Shown: piece by piece, positions 7,355 to 59,561 of the stretch | Numbering within the stretch: position 1 is the first letter of the stretch | How the letters are laid out: each line of letters begins with the position of its first letter | Assembly: GCA_005223085.1 (NCBI GenBank) | Contig: NJBP01000005.1 | Location: forward strand, 2,815-66,814 | Reading direction: 5' to 3' | Origin: Candidatus Aerophobetes bacterium Ae_b3b | GTDB taxonomy: Bacteria; Aerophobota; Aerophobia; Aerophobales; AE-B3A | Length of the DNA: 64,000 nt | Notes under the pieces: generated by a model | What the model was told of the DNA's origin: nothing | Seen by the model: the letters and a program-made list of their open reading frames with translations, nothing else | Databases searched by the model: none | Translations under genes and position numbers: made by a program

Positions 7355-8912
7355 GAAAATTATTTTAGCGGCTGTAACATTACTACTGCCAGTGGCTTTT
7401 GGCTATTTTTGGGGCACAGGATCAAGAGGTTCTCAGATTGGTTCAGATAATCTCGTTCTCAACGGCGGTTTTGAGACTCTAAGCAGGGGCCGACCTGTTT
7501 CCTGGAAAGAGAGTAGGAAGAGGGGCTGGAAGATTGAGACAGAGCAACCTTATGAGGGAGATAGGACCATGCAGGCCACCATAGCCTGGAGTTGGCTCCA
7601 GCAAGAAATTAAGGCCAAAGCTAACAGAAATTACATCCTGAAAGCTTATATAAGATCGGATATCGCTATACCTGAGAAGGAAGATTATGCCAATACTTTT
7701 CTAACTCTGGAGTGTCTGAATTGGAGAAAAAAGATTATCAAAAGGGATTATGGCATCGTTAATGCTGCCTCTTCCTGGCAATTAAAAATAAAAGAGATTC
7801 ATGCTCCTTCAGGGACCAGGAAAATCAGAATAAAGCTAGCCAAAAGGCAGGGAGAGGGAAGTGTTTGGTTTGATGAGGTTAAGTTATTTGAAGTGCCACC
7901 AAGCTTGGTACTTAATCCCAGTTTTGAAGTTCTAAAGAAGGACAGGCCTGTTTCCTGGAAAGAAGATCCTCTGGGTGGCTGGAAGATTGAGACAGAGCAG
8001 CCTTATGAGGGAGATAGGGCCATGCAGGCCACCATAGCCTGGAGTTGGCTCCAGCAAAAAGTTCAGGTTAAACCAGGCAAGTACTATCTCCTGCAAGCTT
8101 ATGTAAGATCGAATATAGCTATACCTGAAAAAAAAGATTATGACAACACTTTCCTTGGCCTGCAGTGCCTGGATGAGAAGGGCCAGCTTATCAAAGAAAA
8201 CTACGGTATTACTAATGCTACTTCTTCCTGGCAGCCAAAGATGCAGCAAATCTATACTTCTCTTAAGACAAAGAAGATCAGAATAAAGCTAGCCAAAAGA
8301 TTGGGAGAGGGTTCTGTTTGGTTTGATAATGTCAAATTGTTTGAGATTCCTTTCTGTGTAGTCTTTAACCCCGGATTTGAAATTCTATCCGGGGATAAAC
8401 CGGATTCCTGGAGGGAAGATCCTAAGGGAGGATGGAAGGTTACCACAGAGGAGCCTCACGCAGGGAAAAACTGCATGCAAGCTACCACAGCCTGGAGTTG
8501 GTTATGGCAGGATATTTCGATCAGACCTAGAAAATACTATATTTTGAGAGCCTACGTGAGGTCAAATATTATTGTGGTTGGGAAAGAAGACCGTGACAAT
8601 GCTTTTTTCTCTCTTGAGTGCTTAGACAAAAAGAGTAAGGTCATTACACAGACATACCAGACTTTTAATGCTAATTCTTCCTGGGAGCAAAAGGAAGGGG
8701 CTATCTGGACCGCGGAAGACACCGATAAGATCAGAATAAAGCTAGCTAAAAGGCAGGGAGAGGGAAGTGTTTGGTTTGATGATGTCGAGCTGGTAAAACA
8801 TCCAGTCGTGGCCAACATTTTCAAGGATAAAGGATTCTTTATCTTCTACATTTCTCTATATCTGATCCTGGGAATATCTCTCCTGAGGCTGGTTCTGAAG
8901 AAAGGTGGTTGA
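7344..8912 (+). CDS. bitopic protein with three tandem CBM4_9/galactose-binding-like modules
   Basis: 522-aa ORF with an N-terminal hydrophobic anchor or signal and a C-terminal TM ('FFIFYISLYLILGISLL'). It carries three 151-aa repeats, each opening 'N(G/P)(G/S)FE' and ending 'GEGSVWFD.V.L'. Overlaps the upstream gene by 11 nt. Confidence 0.6.
   Translation: MKNKKIILAAVTLLLPVAFGYFWGTGSRGSQIGSDNLVLNGGFETLSRGRPVSWKESRKRGWKIETEQPYEGDRTMQATIAWSWLQQEIKAKANRNYILKAYIRSDIAIPEKEDYANTFLTLECLNWRKKIIKRDYGIVNAASSWQLKIKEIHAPSGTRKIRIKLAKRQGEGSVWFDEVKLFEVPPSLVLNPSFEVLKKDRPVSWKEDPLGGWKIETEQPYEGDRAMQATIAWSWLQQKVQVKPGKYYLLQAYVRSNIAIPEKKDYDNTFLGLQCLDEKGQLIKENYGITNATSSWQPKMQQIYTSLKTKKIRIKLAKRLGEGSVWFDNVKLFEIPFCVVFNPGFEILSGDKPDSWREDPKGGWKVTTEEPHAGKNCMQATTAWSWLWQDISIRPRKYYILRAYVRSNIIVVGKEDRDNAFFSLECLDKKSKVITQTYQTFNANSSWEQKEGAIWTAEDTDKIRIKLAKRQGEGSVWFDDVELVKHPVVANIFKDKGFFIFYISLYLILGISLLRLVLKKGG
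7449..8804 (+). repeat. in-frame tandem repeat, 3 x 453 nt (151 aa)
   Basis: Units start at 7449, 7902 and 8355. About 85 nt (7524-7610 vs 7977-8063) differ at only 2 positions between units 1 and 2. Confidence 0.9.
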
Positions 8913-36763: not shown

Positions 36764-36882
36764 TGTAAATGCTCAGTAAACGCCGTGTCACATTGAATTT
36801 TCAGGGTAGCCGCACCCTTTAGGGTGCGCAGGCTCTGAGCCTTGCGACTACCAAAAATGACGGGGTTCACTGAATACTTACG
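36764..36882. repeat. MITE-like palindromic element with REP-doublet core (copy 2)
   Basis: Arms near-identical to 2468-2610. REPs at 36805-36828 and 36827-36852. Flanked by direct TGGGCG (36758-36763, 36883-36888). Confidence 0.75.
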
Positions 36883-36976: not shown

Positions 36977-37849
36977 ATGTTAACCAAGACTTTTTTGAAA
37001 AGATGTGGGATGGTAGGATTATTAGCATTCGGTATTCTCTGGACTCAGATGCCGGTTAAGGCCCAAGAAAAGTCGGTGAGAGAACAACTCGCAGAAGCTA
37101 AAGCGGCAATTGCTGATCAGGTATGGGTAATCGAGCAGATGAAGGATAATTTCTTCAAAGTAACCGGCCAACTAGAGACAGAGATCAAAAAGCTAAGAGC
37201 AATCAATATCGAACAAGCCAGAAAGATTGAAGAGGTCACCAATGTCTATTCGAGAAAAATTCAAGAGTTGGGAGGTGAACTGGATCGTCTTAAGGCAGCG
37301 TACACTAATCTCGAGGCTGTCAATGTTGAGCAGGCTCAAACCATCAAGCAGATCACCGATAACTACTTTGAGGTAACCGGGAAGCTTGGTGAGGAGCTTG
37401 CTATACTCGAGGCTGCCAATGCTGAGCAGGCTCAAACCATCAAGCAGATCACCGATAATTTCTTTAAGGTAACTGGAGAACTCAACAGCAAACTGGGTTC
37501 ACTCGAGGCTGCCAATGCTTCACTCGAGGCTGCCAATGCTGAGCAGGCTCAAACCATCAAGCAGATCACCGATAATTTCTTTAAGGTAACTGGAGAACTC
37601 AACAGCAAACTGGATTCACTCGAGGCTGCCAATGCTTCACTCGAGGCTGCCAATACCGAGCAGGCTCAAACCATCGAACAGATGAGGGATAATTTCTTGA
37701 AGGTAACAGGTAAGCTAAACGAAGAGGCAAATATGCTCAAGGTGACCATAGACGAGCAAGCTGCCACCATCAAAAAACTTAAAGGTCAGAGAATGCTTCT
37801 CGGTCTTGGATTCCTAATAGCCACAGCTGTATTAATAAGTTGTGACTAA
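36977..37849 (+). CDS. secreted repetitive coiled-coil protein with C-terminal membrane anchor
   Basis: Signal-like N-terminus ('LLAFGILWTQMPVKAQE'). Six or more copies of '..EQAQTIKQITDNFFKVTGEL..' and a C-terminal 'MLLGLGFLIATAVLISCD'. Confidence 0.6.
   Translation: MLTKTFLKRCGMVGLLAFGILWTQMPVKAQEKSVREQLAEAKAAIADQVWVIEQMKDNFFKVTGQLETEIKKLRAINIEQARKIEEVTNVYSRKIQELGGELDRLKAAYTNLEAVNVEQAQTIKQITDNYFEVTGKLGEELAILEAANAEQAQTIKQITDNFFKVTGELNSKLGSLEAANASLEAANAEQAQTIKQITDNFFKVTGELNSKLDSLEAANASLEAANTEQAQTIEQMRDNFLKVTGKLNEEANMLKVTIDEQAATIKKLKGQRMLLGLGFLIATAVLISCD
37310..37715 (+). repeat. in-frame tandem repeats (96-nt then 117-nt units)
   Basis: 'CTCGAGGCTGCCAATGCTGAGCAGGCTCAAACCATCAAGCAGATCACCGATAA...' recurs at 37406, 37523 and 37640, a 117-nt period. 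Units 2 and 3 are nearly identical; a diverged unit starts at 37310. Confidence 0.9.
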
Positions 37850-39213: not shown

Positions 39214-40473
39214 CTAGCTTTTGGAGTTTTTCCCTAGATGAGAAATGACCTCCAGAAATCGTTCATTGTTCTCGGTTTTTTTCATTACTTCTATTAACGC
39301 CTCAATGGGCTCTTTAAGGTTCTGTCGATTAAGATAATCTCGGAGGGTCCATATCATCTTAAGTTCCCTTTCACTCAGCAATAGTTCTTCCTTTCTCGTA
39401 CCCGAGCGGTTAATATCAATGCAAGGGAAGATTCTTCGCTCAGCTAATTCCCTGGTTAGTCGTAGTTCCATGTTGCCTGTCCCCTTAAATTCTTCAAAGA
39501 TAACCTCGTCCATTTTACTTCCTGTTTCTACCAGAGCAGTAGCTAAAATAGTTAAACTTCCGCCTTCTTCTATGTTCCGAGCCGCCCCGAAGAATCTTTT
39601 GGGATAGTGTAAAGTATTAGCATCTATTCCCCCTGAAAGAATTTTACCAGAAGTGGGGACAACCAAGTTATAGGCTCGAGCTAATCTGGTAATGCTGTCT
39701 AAGAGAATTACTACATCGTATTTTTGCTCTACTAATCTTTTAACCTTTTGGATAACTAATTCTGCTACTCGGATATGACGTTTTGGAGGCTCGTCAAAGG
39801 TGGAAAAGGCGATTTCCCCAACCACGGATCGTTGCATATCGGTGACCTCTTCCGGTCGTTCATCAATCAAAAGGACTATAAGTTCTATCTCTGGAAAATT
39901 GGCGGTAATGCTGTTAGCGATTTTTTGCAGTAACATAGTTTTTCCCGTCTTGGGAGGTGCAACAATGAGACCTCTCTGTCCCTTCCCTAAGGGTGCAATA
40001 AGATCAATCAAACGAGGAGAAATGTCACCAGAAGCATCTTCCAGGGTGATGCGTTCTTGAGGATAAAGAGGAGTTAGGTTTTCAAAGATAGTTCTTTTTC
40101 TTGCTTCTTCGGGATCCTTTCCGTTTACCGACTCTACCTTTAACAAGGCAAAGTAATTTTCACCCTCCTTGGGTGGTCTAATCTGGCCACTTACCGTGTC
40201 TCCTTCACGTAGGTCAAATCTTTTAATTTGTGAGGGGGAAACATATATATCATCCGGCCCAGAGACATAGTTTGATCTCAAGAATCCGTATCCCTCAGCA
40301 AGAATATCTAAGACCCCGCATCCGTAAGCTACTTTTTCGCGATCAATCTCATTCTGTATTATCTTAAATATGAGATCCTGTTTTTTCAGATAGCGATAAT
40401 TCTCAATCTTCCTCTCTTCTGCCATCTGATGCAGCTCAGCAATATTTTTCTTTTGTAGCTCAGCAATATTCAC
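39214..40473 (-). CDS. rho: transcription termination factor Rho
   Basis: 'GYGFLR', '[19 protein letters not shown]', Walker A 'PPKTGKT', '[10 protein letters not shown]', '[14 protein letters not shown]'. GTG start. Confidence 0.95.
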
Positions 40474-46863: not shown

Positions 46864-46891
46864 TTGACAAAGCATAAATAGGCCGTATAAT
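46864..46891 (+). promoter_or_regulatory. near-consensus sigma70 promoter (TTGACA-16-TATAAT)
   Basis: TTGACA 46864-46869 and TATAAT 46886-46891. The predicted TSS falls about 7 nt downstream, at the GTG that opens the 46899 ORF. Confidence 0.5.
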
Positions 46892-46898
46892 AGTACAC

Positions 46899-47240
46899 GT
46901 GCACGAAAGCTTAGGAAAAGGATATTGTATAAATACCTTATTAATAAATCATTATCCTCCGGAGGAGTATGCTTTTACCAACCTCACCGTTGCATGTCGG
47001 GGGAACATTGAAGTGTTAGCAAGACAGCATGCCAAGAACCTGCGTATGGTAGATAGTCACCTTCTAGAGAAAGTATCGTATTCTGAAAGAAGGAAAACTC
47101 CCACTGTTAGCGGCCAACCACAAAAATATTCAGAGGACTATATTGAAATTCCTGACTCTATTAAAAGACGAGATAAAAGGAGAGTTCGGGAAAATCACGA
47201 TCACTCAGCCGGTATTAAAGAAGACCTGCTAGCTGGGTGA
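46899..47240 (+). CDS. hypothetical protein (113 aa) or untranslated RNA; unresolved
   Basis: Only long ORF in a 780-nt gap. GTG start with no SD, coincident with the predicted TSS. No recognisable motifs. Contains the palindrome CCTCCGGAGG. Confidence 0.25.
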   Translation: MHESLGKGYCINTLLINHYPPEEYAFTNLTVACRGNIEVLARQHAKNLRMVDSHLLEKVSYSERRKTPTVSGQPQKYSEDYIEIPDSIKRRDKRRVRENHDHSAGIKEDLLAG

Positions 47241-47350
47241 ATAAGTGACAGGACAAAAATTCTCTGAAAAAATTTCTGACCATTAAAGATCGAACCAAAA
47301 TCTAACTATTGAGTAATTTTGTTTGGAATTTCTCTTAAGAGAGCCAGACC

Positions 47351-47538
47351 AGCTAAAAATAGGGCCAGGAGGAGGTAAGAGATAAGAAAGTAAATAGGCC
47401 ATCAGCTGGGACAAAAGGAAAGCTTTCTAAAAAGGAGGAAAACGTTAAATAACTAAATTTCTTTTTGGAAGCCTTCACGGAAAAATGAATTATGTGGGTA
47501 AAAGAATTATCTAGAAACCAACAAAAGGAGGCAGTAGT
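47351..47538 (+). promoter_or_regulatory. conserved leader, copy X (upstream of the sugar ABC operon)
   Basis: Shares blocks AGCTAAAAATAGGGCCAG, AGCTGGGACAAAAGGAAAGCTT, CGTTAAATAACTAAATTTC and the AAAAGGAG SD context with 58353-58526. Confidence 0.6.
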
Positions 47539-48522
47539 ATGAAAACTTGGTTAAGGATGTTGGTGGTTTCAATCCTGGTAGCAGGATTGGTAATTGGTAT
47601 TGGAGGAAGTTCCCTAGCGCAGGCACGAAAGTACACGGTTTATGTGATAGTGCACGGCGGTATTGCGGATCCGTTCTGGAAGGTTTGTGAAAAAGGCGCA
47701 AAGGATGCAGCTGCCCTATATCCCGATCTAGATGTAACCTATGTTGGACCAGCAGTATATAAGTTTGAAGAGTTCATGACCTATGTAGAGTCAGCCATAG
47801 CATATAATCCTGATGCCCTGGTTGTTACCTTGACTGACCCTCCAGCTATGGATGAGTCCCTTCGCGCGGCCATTGCCGCGGGATTACCGGTAGTGGCGAT
47901 CAATGCTCCGGACCTAAGGGAGCCTGTTGAAGCGAGGATACCTGTAATAACTTATGTCGGCGAAGACAGCTATGTGATCGGGGTGACTGCAGCAAAAGAA
48001 ACGTTAGAGCGATTCACCCCCAAACGGGCAGTGTTCGCTAACCACCACCCAGGAGCCGTTAATATTGAGGCAAGAGGAAGAGGCTGGGTAGATACCATGA
48101 AGGAAAAAGGTATACCCGCAGAGCAGCTAGATATCACTGAGGACGCAGTTAAGGGAGCTGAGATAACAGCAGCCTATCTGAGGACACATCCTGACACTGA
48201 TGCCATCTTTGTTTCAAATACACTTCGCACAGAAACGATCGTACCGCGTCTAGAATCAGATGGCATTAAGGTAGGGGTTGAGGTAAAGATTGCTCAAATG
48301 GATATATCCCCGAAGATCCTCGAATACATCGGAGCTGGCAAGGTAATGTTCACAATGGACCAGCAGCAGTATCTGCAAGGTTACCTGGGGGTACTGTTCG
48401 CGTACTTGCACGTGAAATATGGGTTTACACCTCCACCAGCACCAGTCTCGACAGGACCGGGAGTCGTAACCAAAGCGGAGATTCCTGTGCTGGCAACATT
48501 ATCCGAGCAAGGGTATAGATAA
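47539..48522 (+). CDS. sugar ABC transporter substrate-binding protein (Peripla_BP/RbsB-like)
   Basis: Signal peptide, 'VYVIVHGGIADPFW', 'VVAINAPD'. Followed by an RbsC-like permease and an ATPase. Confidence 0.75.
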   Translation: MKTWLRMLVVSILVAGLVIGIGGSSLAQARKYTVYVIVHGGIADPFWKVCEKGAKDAAALYPDLDVTYVGPAVYKFEEFMTYVESAIAYNPDALVVTLTDPPAMDESLRAAIAAGLPVVAINAPDLREPVEARIPVITYVGEDSYVIGVTAAKETLERFTPKRAVFANHHPGAVNIEARGRGWVDTMKEKGIPAEQLDITEDAVKGAEITAAYLRTHPDTDAIFVSNTLRTETIVPRLESDGIKVGVEVKIAQMDISPKILEYIGAGKVMFTMDQQQYLQGYLGVLFAYLHVKYGFTPPPAPVSTGPGVVTKAEIPVLATLSEQGYR

Positions 48523-50434: not shown

Positions 50435-50531
50435 AGAAATTTTGTCCATTAAAAGGAGGTGGTGAATGGGAGAGAGATCAAGATGAGAGGAGATGAGAGT
50501 AGTAGAGATCGTCTAAAAAAGGAGTGTTAAA

Positions 50532-51911
50532 ATGAAGAAATTAAGAGCAAAAAGCGGGATAATGGTAGTTGCCTTGGCGGTAGGTTTGCTTCTGGTGGGA
50601 GGAGCAGTCTCGTATACTCAGGAGACTGAGACTATTACCGTTACTGTCCGTTGCCGGGCGAAACCGCCCATGGAAAACTGGCGCGGTGATAACTTCCTTC
50701 TAGCGACTGAGGAGCTCAATGCTGATCTGAAGGCCGCAGGTGACCCCCGACGGGTTGAGATCGAACTTATACAGGACAACATGGACTGGGGTCCTTACCT
50801 AAGCGAGTTCGTGCTCGGCTTTGGGGCTGGTGAGGCGCCGGACATCTGGCTTACCGGACACGAGTACATCGGTGCTCAGGCCGAGGCGGGCCGGATCATT
50901 GCCCTGGACGAGATGTTGAAGGAGTTCCCCACATTCAACCTTATCATTGACGGCCTCTGGGATTCCACCACGTACAAGGGCAAGATCTGGGGGATCCCCC
51001 AGGATGCTGAGGCTCGACCCCTCTACTTCAACAAGGCTTTGTTGAAGAAGCTCGGTTGGTCCGATGCAGAGATCGCGGCCCTGCCGGGGAAGATCGAGAA
51101 GGGTGAATTCACCCTCTACGACATGCTGGAGACGGCCAAGGAGGCCGTGGCCAGGGGTATCGTCGAGCTGGGCAATGGTTTCTGGACTCGCCCCAAGAAC
51201 GGCCCCGACTTCACTGCCTTCTACTATGCCTTCGGCGGGGAGACCATCGATCCTGCGACCGGCAAGCTGGTCTTTGATACGGCGGCGGGGCTGAAGTACT
51301 ACCAGTTCTTCTACGACGCCGCGCAGACCTACGGGTCAATGGGCTGCCTTGGCTTAGGTTGGGGCGAGGCCTGGCATCCTGGGGTCTCCGGGAGTAAGGT
51401 TCTGTTCTGGATCGGCGGGACGTGGCAGTGGGCCGAGTGGGCAGAGATTTACCTCAAGGACCTCGGCGGTGAGGCCTACATGTGGGAGAACTTCGGCTTC
51501 GGATTGATCCCGGCTGCGGAGAAGGGTGACAAGCCGAACTCCCTCACGCACCCGCTGGCCTATCTTATCAGCTCCCAGTGTAAATACCCGGACCTGGCGC
51601 TGGCCCTAATTGCCAAGGTTAGTAACTATGGACCCAACACCCGTCATGCGATCGCCAGCACCCATCTGGGTATCCTCAAGGGCCAGACAGAGTACAAGTT
51701 CTACAAGGTATCCCGCCTGCTGAGCGAGACTCTCTACATGCTCGATTACACTACTTTTCTGCCCAACAACCCCTACTGGGGCCCCTATTCCACCATTACC
51801 TACGAGGCCCTGGCAGCGGCGGTGGGGGGCGAGTTCACCCCCGAGGAGGCGGTAGACTTCGTGGTAGATGGGCTCCAGCGTGAGCTGGGCGACAAGGTGA
51901 TCATTCGGTGA
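50532..51911 (+). CDS. extracellular solute-binding protein family 1 (carbohydrate ABC SBP)
   Basis: Signal or lipoprotein-like N-terminus, 459 aa, W/Y-rich. Markedly GC-rich relative to the rest of the window. Confidence 0.7.
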   Translation: MKKLRAKSGIMVVALAVGLLLVGGAVSYTQETETITVTVRCRAKPPMENWRGDNFLLATEELNADLKAAGDPRRVEIELIQDNMDWGPYLSEFVLGFGAGEAPDIWLTGHEYIGAQAEAGRIIALDEMLKEFPTFNLIIDGLWDSTTYKGKIWGIPQDAEARPLYFNKALLKKLGWSDAEIAALPGKIEKGEFTLYDMLETAKEAVARGIVELGNGFWTRPKNGPDFTAFYYAFGGETIDPATGKLVFDTAAGLKYYQFFYDAAQTYGSMGCLGLGWGEAWHPGVSGSKVLFWIGGTWQWAEWAEIYLKDLGGEAYMWENFGFGLIPAAEKGDKPNSLTHPLAYLISSQCKYPDLALALIAKVSNYGPNTRHAIASTHLGILKGQTEYKFYKVSRLLSETLYMLDYTTFLPNNPYWGPYSTITYEALAAAVGGEFTPEEAVDFVVDGLQRELGDKVIIR

Positions 51912-58279: not shown

Positions 58280-58352
58280 TCTTATAAAAAGTAGACTCTG
58301 CTTGACTTGGTGAACATGAAACAAGATGGCAGGGTAATAATGGCAAGGGAAG

Positions 58353-58526
58353 AGCTAAAAATAAGGCCAGAGGGAGGTGAAAAGCAGGTAGGTCGTTAGC
58401 TGGGCAGAAGGAAAGCTTCCCAGAAAGAGGAAGCCGTTAAATAATTAAATTTCCTCAGAGGAAGTTTCAGAAAATAGCTCAGCTATCTCAGCAAAAAGAT
58501 GGGAAAACAAAAAGGAGAGAGTTAAT
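58353..58526 (+). promoter_or_regulatory. conserved leader, copy Y (upstream of the Fe3+-type ABC operon)
   Basis: AGCTAAAAATAAGGCCAG, AGCTGGGCAGAAGGAAAGCTT, CGTTAAATAATTAAATTTC and AAAAAGGAG SD, collinear with 47351-47538. Confidence 0.6.
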
Positions 58527-59561
58527 ATGTTTAGACGATTGCTGGTATTCAGTTTAACGGCAGCCCTACTTTTTGGTCTGGCTGCCACAGGATTTACGGC
58601 CAAAAAGACTCTCCATGTGTATACAGCTTTTGACGTAGACGAGGCTAATATATATATAGAAGCCTTCAAGAAATCGTATCCCGACATAGACGTTAAATGG
58701 GTGCGGATGTCTGCGGGAGAGGTTTTGGCCCGAGTAAGGGCGGAGGCAAAGAATCCTCAGGCGAGTATCTGGTTTGCCGGTCCCAGCACTTCCCACATAG
58801 CTGCCGCGGGACATGACCTACTGGACCCCTATACCGAATCCTTGGCCTGGCAGTACCTTCCCGCTGACTTCAAGGACCCCGAGGGGCGTTGGACTGGCTT
58901 TTACACCGGATTCATCGGCTTCGCTACTAACAAAGAATTTCTCAAAAAGCATGGTGTGGAAGCTCCTACCTCATGGAATGACCTTCTTAAACCGGTGTTC
59001 AAAAAAGAAATCTCCAAAGCCTATCCCTATACTTCAGGTACCGCTTACACCACCTTAATTTCACAGCTTCAAGCTATAGGCCCCAAAAAGCTCGGTTGGG
59101 ACCAGGAAGATGAGGAATATATCAAGAAACTGAGCGCGCAGATACACCACTACACCAAGGCGGGCTCAGCCTGTGTAACCGAAGCAGGGTTGGGTGAGGT
59201 GGCAGTGGGTATTGCCTTCTCTCATGATATCGTGGCCAAGGGTATCGCCAAAGGATATCCGGTGGTGATGAGTTTTCCTAAAGAGGGAACAGGTTACGAG
59301 ATCGGGGCTGTTTCCTTGATCAAAGGCGGGCCTGAACCGCAACTGGCCAGGGTATTCTTTGATTGGCTCATGAGTGCTGAGGCTCAAAGTCTATTTAAGA
59401 AATGGAACAGAGTTCCTTTGAACCCGCAAGCGGAGCTCGCCGAAGGCCTGGTAACAGCGGCCCAGGTCCCGGTAATCGAAGGCTTCGGGGGACAAATCAC
59501 CTGGTATGGTCAGCGCAAGGACGAGATTATCGACCGATGGAGACAAATCACCGGTCGATAA
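58527..59561 (+). CDS. ABC substrate-binding protein, Fe3+/AfuA-FbpA-like (SBP_bac_6-like)
   Basis: Signal peptide, 'LHVYTAFDVDEANIYIEAFKKSYPDIDVKWVRMSAGEV', 'IWFAGPS'. Confidence 0.65.
   Translation: MFRRLLVFSLTAALLFGLAATGFTAKKTLHVYTAFDVDEANIYIEAFKKSYPDIDVKWVRMSAGEVLARVRAEAKNPQASIWFAGPSTSHIAAAGHDLLDPYTESLAWQYLPADFKDPEGRWTGFYTGFIGFATNKEFLKKHGVEAPTSWNDLLKPVFKKEISKAYPYTSGTAYTTLISQLQAIGPKKLGWDQEDEEYIKKLSAQIHHYTKAGSACVTEAGLGEVAVGIAFSHDIVAKGIAKGYPVVMSFPKEGTGYEIGAVSLIKGGPEPQLARVFFDWLMSAEAQSLFKKWNRVPLNPQAELAEGLVTAAQVPVIEGFGGQITWYGQRKDEIIDRWRQITGR

Follow-up and report, generated by a model that had tools for sequence, protein, structure and literature searches.

Introduction

In the cry3A transcript of Bacillus thuringiensis, an extra Shine–Dalgarno (SD) sequence at about position −125, STAB-SD, stabilizes the mRNA (Agaisse & Lereclus, 1996, as cited in PMC12970973). 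STAB-SD is understood to protect the mRNA by binding the 30S subunit, and it is tied to very highly expressed genes. In the hbs mRNA of B. subtilis, a ribosome at a strong SD masks the messenger from attack by RNase Y and RNase J1 (PMC5737220). Leaders carrying boxA and using Nus factors are known for rrn and suhB, and only a few boxA targets outside rRNA are expected per species (PMC5725501). Here, we describe a structured leader from a stretch of 64,000 nucleotides (nt) of Candidatus Aerophobetes bacterium Ae_b3b (hereafter the window, to which all coordinates refer unless a contig is given; the genome assembly comprises 2.04 Mb). It carries an SD-like sequence, far upstream of the initiation codon, within the loop of a conserved hairpin, and it stands before two unrelated ATP-binding cassette (ABC) transporter operons of the window and before many genes of the phylum, mostly those of solute-binding proteins (SBPs). 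In bacteria that scavenge nutrients, SBPs usually rank with the most abundant proteins, and the Aerophobetes are uncultured bacteria that are common in marine and subsurface sediment.

Two collinear leaders in the window

The two copies of the leader in the window, copy A (47348–47496) and copy B (58350–58489), are collinear and about 76–80% identical, and form a homologous core; the bounds of this core are those of covariance-model matches, converted to window coordinates from contig C37. In a blastn comparison over the whole 2.04 Mb genome the copies match each other with E = 5e-15 (76% identity over 111 nt), so that their likeness is not due to chance. A preliminary description of the window had proposed that 47351–47538 and 58353–58526 are collinear, and this is borne out by blastn and by a MAFFT alignment of 47241–47545 with 58280–58535, in which every shared block that it had listed is present, namely AGCTAAAAATA(G/A)GGCCAG, GGAGGT, AGCTGGG.CA.AAGGAAAGCTT and AAAG(G)AGGAA, as well as CGTTAAATAA(C/T)TAAATTTC and GGAAG..TTCA. 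The proposed extent holds for the core and fails for the last 30–40 nt before the start codons, which consist of a variable spacer and each gene's own SD and are alike in purine richness only. The downstream proteins are non-homologous, as had been stated: Peripla_BP_4 (RbsB-type) behind copy A and SBP_bac_6/1/11 (Fe3+/polyamine-type) behind copy B. Each of the two binding-protein genes is the first gene of an ABC-transporter operon.

All of the features of the two copies lie on the forward strand. In copy A, a first hairpin (H1, 47349–47409), assigned from its fold and from covariation in the family, has an outer helix CCAGCU/AGCUGG and a large purine-rich loop; its inner helix, assigned in the same way, pairs GGCC at 47363–47366 with GGCC at 47397–47400. 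The loop contains the SD-like sequence GGAGGAGGU (47368–47376), 163 nt upstream of the ATG, which we call the decoy SD. The second hairpin (H2, 47418–47476; GGAAAGCUUUCUAAAAAGGAGGAAA ... UUUCUUUUUGGAAGCCUUC), assigned from its fold and from family comparison, is followed by a conserved single-stranded tail, ACGGAAAAAUGAAUUAUGUG (47477–47496). The true SD (AAGGAGG, 47525–47531) and the RbsB-type SBP gene (ATG at 47539) together span 47525–48522, and the ABC operon extends to 50397.

Copy B is built on the same plan. H1 (58353–58401) pairs AGCUAA at 58353–58358 with UUAGCU at 58396–58401, and its inner helix pairs GGCC at 58365–58368 with GGUC at 58391–58394, including one G–U pair. The decoy SD in the loop is GGGAGGUGA (58372–58380), 147 nt upstream of the ATG. 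H2 (58410–58468; GGAAAGCUUCCCAGAAAGAGGAAG ... UUUCCUCAGAGGAAGUUUC) belongs to a covariance-model match of 106.5 bits, and the tail (58469–58489) is atypical, with AGAAAAUAGCUCAGCUAUCUC replacing ..AAUGAACCAUGUC. The true SD (AGGAG, 58513–58517) and the SBP_bac_6/Fe3+-type gene (ATG at 58527) span 58513–59561, and a fused permease and an ATPase follow, to 62433. The unconstrained minimum-energy fold of copy A is the exact family consensus, and that of copy B differs from it.

Upstream of copy A, a consensus scan picks out a weak promoter-like site, GTGACA-17-AAAAAT with TG, at 47245–47273 (+), about 75 nt before the copy; such a match is not evidence of function. The same kind of scan finds a perfect TTGACA-16-TATAAT farther upstream (46864–46891), facing a 113-codon GTG open reading frame (ORF) with no Pfam match that lies directly upstream of copy A (46864–47240 for promoter and ORF together), and copy A may also be read from this promoter. 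Upstream of copy B we saw no recognisable promoter; the preceding pfkB-family gene ends 74 nt away.

A covarying fold on the sense strand

In the family as a whole, the leader is about 140–190 nt long and its elements follow the order promoter, 5′ motif, purine run, H1, H2, tail, spacer, true SD and start codon. Many copies have a good TTGACA-17-TAATAAT promoter about 45–60 nt upstream of H1, after which come the 5′ motif, (A)UGAAGUUAGAUCUUUGACAAA, and the purine run. In the family register, H1 consists of the outer helix AGCUAA/UUAGCU, the inner helix GGCC/GGCC and a conserved loop, A(G/A)GGAGGUGAGAAAGUAGGUA; its helix P1 is 90% paired, with AU-to-GC swaps in both directions, and its helix P2 is 97% paired. 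The consensus of H2 is GGAAAGCUUUCC-AAAGAGAAA [GUGUUAAAUAAUUA] UUUCUCUUU-GGGAGCUUUCC. When folded alone, the H2 region of 94 out of 100 leaders gives just one hairpin; the mean is 20.8 base pairs and −18.9 kcal/mol, with z = −3.95 against shuffled sequences. The conserved single-stranded tail (consensus AcaGAAAAAUGAACcAUGUC) is separated from the true SD by a variable, A-rich spacer of 15–75 nt. The hairpin that the preliminary description had drawn, AGCT..GGCC[loop with GGAGG]GG(C/T)C..AGCT, is H1 and is backed by covariation. The 'palindrome' GAAAGCTTTC that it had taken for a hairpin of its own is instead the 5′ arm of H2, whose 3′ arm, GGAAGCCTTC or GGAAGTTTC, lies about 45 nt downstream.

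RNAalifold found almost no structure in a plain MAFFT alignment. Because the arms of H2 need a structure-aware alignment, we built a covariance model, R1, from 22 full-length copies (139 positions, 28 pairs) and aligned 100 leaders to it. The resulting pair counts, which are biased in favour of the model to which the alignment was fitted, give standard pairs in 80% of cells, changes on both sides in 24 of the 28 pairs and 192 compensatory cells; shuffling of the columns gives 98 ± 8, and the observed value is reached in none of 500 shuffles. Swaps are seen at single pairs, for example AU 51/GC 28 or CG 18/GC 18/UA 14/UG 12, and compensatory pairs are present in both H1 and H2. Sliding the partners by 1–3 columns lowers pairing to 32–61%, and this control, together with the independent single-sequence folds, indicates that the signal is real. 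G–U pairs are very common (for example GU 81/AU 8), from which it follows that the fold exists on the sense strand only, a point in favour of an RNA rather than a DNA operator. The compensatory pairs, the abundance of G–U pairs and the co-orientation of all 30 copies in the Ae_b3b genome with the downstream gene support a shared cis-acting module that acts as sense-strand RNA. The preliminary description had left open a common cis-regulatory module of either kind, a riboswitch-like RNA or a shared operator and promoter; the shared cis-acting RNA module is supported, a ligand-specific riboswitch is unlikely and the fold argues against a DNA operator.

Several other readings of the conserved parts were discarded. 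A cre/CcpA-like operator reading of GGAAAGCTTTCC fails in that this sequence covaries with its distal partner as RNA. A sigma-54 promoter reading of CTGGG..N..GC was dismissed by eye, as the two copies do not share the same spacing (the difference is 1 nt) and AAGC would have to serve as the −12 element. Pairing of the 5′ flank with the tail to form a closing helix was rejected since cognate and non-cognate duplex energies are alike (p = 0.43). A start codon occurs in the tail of 70 of 79 copies, and the ORFs that would begin there range from 2 to more than 30 codons; nucleotide conservation runs past early stop codons, which speaks against a leader peptide from the tail AUG and marks the tail as an RNA motif. 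The conserved tail, (A)AUGAACcAuGUC, resembles the 5′-terminal motif (A)AUGAAGUUAGAUC with which many leaders (for example L012, L016 and L019) open and which precedes boxA. Judged from their sequences, the tail and the 5′ motif look like a direct repeat flanking H1 and H2; pairing between them was not detectable.

An old family, apparently confined to the phylum

Iterated nhmmer searches of the Ae_b3b genome converge on 30 copies, and R1 finds 29. At E ≤ 1e-6, covariance-model E-values being rough, the phylum holds 236 copies in 27 of 31 genomes, and these 27 genomes span one order, seven families and 15 genera. The covariance-model search found no copy in any of ten outgroup genomes, and there is no match among 72,556 plasmids; it is on these ten genomes and on the plasmids that the apparent specificity for the phylum rests. 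An exact 28-nt H1 pattern is present in at least 120 public metagenome contigs. The preliminary description had suggested a covariance-model search of the genome and of metagenomes; the model in genomes and the exact pattern in metagenomes have brought many further copies to light. The outcome that it had opposed to its own view, a recent segmental duplication with no further copies, is refuted by some 30 copies in the genome that are 59–83% identical to one another.

Even the closest pair of leaders is only 83% identical. Mean leader identity is 70% for homologous and non-homologous downstream proteins alike, and the absence of correlation between leader and protein similarity (Spearman 0.02, p = 0.79) rules out co-duplication of leader and gene. 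Given this independence from the proteins and the maximum of 83%, the copies are old and kept close to one consensus, and do not stem from recent duplication or transposition.

Genes behind the leader

Each of the 30 copies of the Ae_b3b genome lies 30–125 nt upstream of a same-strand ORF; these distances are approximate, as the start of the longest ORF was taken. In related genomes and metagenome contigs, the downstream ORF was sought on the strand of the leader only. According to Pfam, the gene encodes an SBP in 24 of 30 cases in the Ae_b3b genome, in 18 of 24 for the best copy of each related genome and in 53 of 55 on metagenome contigs, that is in 95 of 109 (87%) altogether. The SBPs belong to at least six Pfam family groups (SBP_bac_1/8, SBP_bac_5, SBP_bac_6/11, Peripla_BP_4, Peripla_BP_6 and DctP), of ABC and tripartite ATP-independent periplasmic (TRAP) transporters, and are of sugar, peptide, amino-acid, polyamine/iron and TRAP-substrate types. 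The other genes encode GroES, CstA, short-chain (SDR) and zinc (ADH) dehydrogenases, transketolase, agmatine deiminase, an ASST-like protein, a permease and URO-D. Genes such as those of GroES, CstA, SDR, ADH and transketolase fit a tag for high expression and do not fit a substrate sensor. A catalogue of the downstream families, from which the preliminary description had hoped to infer a ligand, points to no single ligand. Nor is the leader a device for co-regulating the two operons of the window in particular, as had been suggested, with about 30 copies in the genome and 236 in the phylum before varied genes.

At one locus on another contig (L004, C65:21540–21910), no gene follows a leader copy (C65:22043) within 400 nt; what comes after it is another kind of repeat (..GGTAGTCGCAGGCTTTAGCCTGCGCACCCTAAAGGGTGCGGCC..), also present in the window at 2470–2535 and 36765–36830. 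From the sequence, a mobile repeat may have been inserted here between the leader and its gene. The window also contains tandem units, which are probably repeats within coding sequence: in a repeat scan, three of 453 nt were seen at 7455–8785 and, within 37130–37749, at least four of 117 nt at 37303–37749.

A decoy Shine–Dalgarno sequence

The H1 loop of the leaders displays a near-perfect complement (AGGAGGUGA) of the 3′ tail of 16S rRNA, which in the Ae_b3b genome ends in GGATCACCTCCTTTC (fuller ending GGAUCACCUCCUUUC). A perfect complement of at least 7 nt to the cell's own 16S tail is found in 84 of 97 leaders; the median length is 8 nt and the longest match 12 nt. A start codon lies 4–13 nt after the decoy in 38 of 97 leaders, which is the chance expectation, so that nothing appears to be translated from it by design. 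The decoy is thus, like STAB-SD, a 16S-complementary SD-like sequence that lies far upstream and has no start codon of its own. Its predicted unpaired probability is 0.58, compared with 0.45 for the rest of the leader (p = 9e-7).

The decoy sequence is also enriched outside the full leader. GGAGGTG occurs 22–260 nt upstream of 32 of 48 SBP homologues, compared with 25 of the 1094 remaining long ORFs (odds ratio 86, p = 9e-35), and this enrichment includes SBP genes that lack a full leader. One such site is in the window: a lone decoy SD, GGAGGUGGUGA, with neither H1 nor H2, lies at 50455–50465 (+), about 70 nt upstream of a third putative binding-protein gene (50532–51911), and looks like a minimal version of the leader feature. 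This ORF (459 residues), which has no Pfam match at E ≤ 1e-3, occupies the binding-protein position at the head of an ABC operon of the permease–permease–MalK type.

The true SD lies in the non-conserved spacer, outside the conserved structure. Its predicted unpaired probability is 0.55 with the leader and 0.63 without it overall, and 0.70/0.72 and 0.81/0.79 for the window copies; taking the leader away hardly alters this accessibility, and the true SD is not sequestered. No terminator-like site was found on the forward strand after H1 or H2. At gathering thresholds, Rfam finds only tmRNA in the window, and with permissive E-values it returns only noise for one window copy and for the best copy of the family; the leader thus matches no Rfam family, in keeping with the earlier remark that it could not be assigned to a known class. 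It has the covarying, aptamer-like structure of a riboswitch, and we found neither an expression platform nor a gene context that would suit one ligand; a ligand-specific riboswitch is unlikely. An RNA thermometer of the ROSE type would pair U(U/C)GCU with the true SD in its 3′-most hairpin; this pairing is absent and no Rfam ROSE model matches. Nor does the leader resemble a miniature inverted-repeat transposable element (MITE) or a repetitive extragenic palindromic (REP) sequence, as all 30 copies are co-oriented with their gene, identity is 59–83% and there are no bounding inverted repeats. GGA motifs like those of CsrA-bound leaders are present, and CsrA (PF02599) is not found in the Ae_b3b genome.

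RNA machinery of the lineage and boxA

We surveyed RNA-related factors in 17 genomes (Ae_b3b, its genus, its family and its order). RNase Y, RNase III and Rho are each present in 17/17 genomes and NusB in 15/17. RNase J (TIGR00649) exceeds the cut-off in 0/17 genomes, with no match at all in the Ae_b3b genome or its genus; RNase E/G and Hfq are likewise found in 0/17, and CsrA in 1/17. CsrA and Hfq can therefore be dismissed as partners of the leader. As RNase J was not found in the lineage, the textbook mechanism of STAB-SD, in which 5′-to-3′ decay by the 5′ exonuclease RNase J1 is blocked, cannot apply as such, and any protection would have to be against RNase Y or Rho. The single rho gene of the genome lies in the window (39241–40470, − strand).

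The rrn leader of Ae_b3b reads TTGACA...TATACT...ACUAGAUCUUUGAAAACUUGG, with boxA at its typical position; this boxA, TAGATCTTTGAAAA, is close to the published sequence GYTCTTTAANA (PMC5725501). A boxA-like sequence similar to TTAGATCTTTGACAAA is present in 10 of the 30 leaders of the genome, at a fixed 21–24 nt before H1. Only four sites of the genome are within one mismatch of the rrn 14-mer: the rrn leader itself, one SBP leader, the 5′ untranslated region (5′-UTR) of rny and one other. The boxA is better regarded as an optional add-on than as a defining part of the family, because only 12–29 of 98 leaders carry the boxA-like core.

Two further observations concern the Nus factors. The rny gene for RNase Y (C73:2731–4236, − strand) is preceded in C73:4236–4340 (−) by a near-perfect rrn boxA, UUGAUCUUUGAAAAU, directly after a TTGACA promoter and 5–10 nt before the SD. 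This is the arrangement of the Nus-repressed suhB gene of Escherichia coli (PMC5725501), and by analogy Nus factors may control RNase Y synthesis. NusB itself forms the N-terminal domain of a longer protein (about 590 residues; C21:12960–14732, +), the rest of which matches a poly(A) polymerase/CCA-adding head domain and a tRNA nucleotidyltransferase domain (PF01029 + PF01743 + PF13735); this long frame (568–610 residues) is found in 14 of the 15 genomes with NusB.

Possible functions of the leader

The leader is probably a general module for expression or stability and not a sensor of a single nutrient. In the specific form that we favour, to which we tentatively give a probability of about 0.45, it would be a generic, constitutive 5′-UTR module of the STAB-SD kind that docks the 30S subunit and boosts or stabilizes the mRNAs of uptake genes. 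The evidence consists of sequence, fold, covariation, copy number, gene association, 16S complementarity and the nuclease repertoire of the lineage. The leader would be transcribed together with the gene behind it. The complement of 7–12 nt to 16S rRNA in the open H1 loop, with no start codon after it, would let a 30S subunit dock on the untranslated leader, and H2, of about 21 base pairs, would fold the leader back so as to bring H1 near the tail and the real ribosome-binding site. The docked ribosome and the two hairpins could then shield the long leader from RNase Y and Rho, and a ribosome would be kept on standby beside the true start, so that mRNA stability and output would rise for very abundant proteins, mainly SBPs. 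Those leaders that open with a boxA of the cell's own rrn type could in addition load NusB/NusE for anti-termination. A STAB-SD-like module accounts for the heterogeneous gene set with its highly expressed look, for the lack of an expression platform and for the enrichment of lone decoys, and it has precedents in Bacillus.

Several points weigh against the STAB-SD-like module. Only 24 of the 48 SBP genes of the genome have a full leader. The predicted openness of the decoy (0.58) is only moderate, and the boxA-like core is confined to a minority of leaders (10 of 30 in the Ae_b3b genome and 12–29 of 98 across the phylum). RNase J, the enzyme that is blocked in classic STAB-SD, exceeds the cut-off in none of the 17 genomes. 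Docking of the 30S subunit does not explain why the tail (..GAAAAAUGAACCAUGUC) is so strongly conserved, or why the H1 loop is conserved in its 3′ half (GAGAAAGUAGGUAGG), and both suggest an additional partner. Finally, an SD:anti-SD duplex of 9 nt could equally be a ribosome trap that lowers expression.

Beyond the decoy, unpaired sequence is conserved in the 3′ half of the loop of H1 and in the tail AcaGAAAAAUGAACcAUGUC, and this is the best argument for a platform on which a trans-acting global regulator, either an RNA-binding protein or a pyrimidine-rich small RNA, would bind the H1 loop, the tail or both and switch the whole uptake regulon in response to starvation or carbon status. The resemblance of the tail to the 5′-terminal motif AUGAAGUUAGAUC, perhaps making two copies of one recognition site, and a gene content like that of a regulon would suit such a platform; yet the usual candidates are missing (CsrA in 1/17 and Hfq in 0/17 genomes), targets such as GroES, the dehydrogenases and transketolase do not fit one nutritional regulon and the true SD lies outside the conserved structure, so that we hold this explanation to be rather unlikely. 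An RNA-processing module, in which H2 (about 21 base pairs) is a substrate of RNase III and/or the A-rich tail a site for RNase Y, is also unlikely, and it overlaps with the STAB-SD-like module more than it excludes it. Cleavage would uncouple the SBP cistron from upstream transcripts and leave it with a defined, stable 5′ end, raising the yield of the SBP above that of the rest of the operon. Both enzymes are present in 17/17 genomes, H2 is long, regular and kept by covariation, single-stranded A-rich sequence is preferred by RNase Y (PMC5737220), the tail resembles the primary 5′ ends that other copies have, and copy B, which lacks a recognisable promoter and lies 74 nt after a pfkB-family gene, is perhaps internal to an operon. 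The many copies with a good promoter of their own just upstream have, however, no general need of uncoupling, and processing leaves the decoy SD unexplained. We regard as distinctly doubtful a bolder proposal, namely that the leader serves throughout the phylum as a post-transcriptional uptake tag for which the ribosome itself would be the ligand: 30S subunits that are free, together with NusB/NusE on the copies with boxA, would load onto the untranslated leader, and the pool of idle 30S would set the output of the tagged operons, making a sensor of growth rate or starvation for about 30 operons. If true, a ribosome-liganded uptake tag would be at work in a lineage that seems to have neither RNase J, RNase E/G nor Hfq, and that mostly lacks CsrA.

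A riboswitch-like RNA was one of the possibilities raised in the preliminary description. In the form considered here, a riboswitch that responds to a global metabolite or second messenger and uses H1 (P1, internal loop, P2 and conserved loop) as its aptamer, this idea draws on the aptamer-like architecture with its highly conserved unpaired nucleotides. It would form a new class, given the lack of any Rfam match, and second-messenger riboswitches in multiple copies per genome are known. Against it, no terminator follows H1 or H2, the spacer varies between 15 and 75 nt, the true SD is not consistently sequestered (0.55 versus 0.63), the most conserved part of the 'pocket' is simply the complement of the 16S 3′ tail and the downstream genes are too varied for one ligand; we therefore consider such a switch to be very improbable. 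We give still less credence, and indeed hardly any, to a non-adaptive or selfish dispersed repeat (MITE, REP-like or 'mobile promoter') that has accumulated upstream of genes. The copy number is high, promoter and leader sometimes seem to travel jointly and leader similarity is independent of that of the downstream proteins, as such a repeat would have it; but all 30 copies of the genome are co-oriented with a gene, 87% of the downstream genes encode SBPs, there are neither terminal inverted repeats nor near-identical copies (maximum 83%), compensatory change maintains the structure across seven families of the phylum and no match occurs among 72,556 plasmids.

One structured leader before most uptake genes would be the main handle on how Aerophobetes set their transport capacity. 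It would also provide an unusually clean natural test of whether an SD without a start codon can raise the stability or output of an mRNA where RNase Y is present and RNase J and RNase E are not, a question to which the known Bacillus mechanism gives no answer. Rfam does not contain the family; with hundreds of members and good covariation it could be deposited there, and the presence of the leader is a simple marker of Aerophobetes contigs in metagenomes.

Comparison with known systems

The leader is closest to STAB-SD and to related ribosome-dependent 5′ stabilizers such as that of hbs: in STAB-SD as in the leader, an SD lies about 120–190 nt before the start codon and has none of its own, and docking of the 30S subunit on the leader would follow the same principle. 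In contrast to STAB-SD, the decoy is part of a conserved hairpin, in the loop of which it lies, with a conserved hairpin of 21 base pairs and a conserved tail after it, and genomes throughout the phylum have the leader in dozens of copies each. Its lineage seems, moreover, to be without RNase J, which STAB-SD is taken to block, so that any protective effect of the leader would have to differ in its target. With the boxA/Nus-factor leaders of rrn and suhB (PMC5725501) it shares, in a subset of copies, a boxA-like sequence, TTAGATCTTTGACAAA, to be compared with TAGATCTTTGAAAA in the cell's own rrn boxA. The lineage has NusB (15/17) and Rho (17/17), and boxA is recognised here by sequence match; unlike those leaders, only a minority of the copies have it.

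Like ROSE elements, the leader is a structured 5′-UTR that recurs before ABC-transporter genes. ROSE, however, pairs U(U/C)GCU with the true SD, whereas the true SD of the leader is outside the fold and unsequestered, and the Rfam ROSE models do not match it. Finally, Matus-Garcia and co-workers reportedly described, in Nucleic Acids Research in 2012, putative mobile promoters, which are homologous upstream regions before non-homologous genes. The leader resembles these in that one cassette of promoter and leader stands before unrelated genes, and it differs from them in that its copies are old (59–83% identical), have an RNA fold that covaries and keep to genes of a single functional class.

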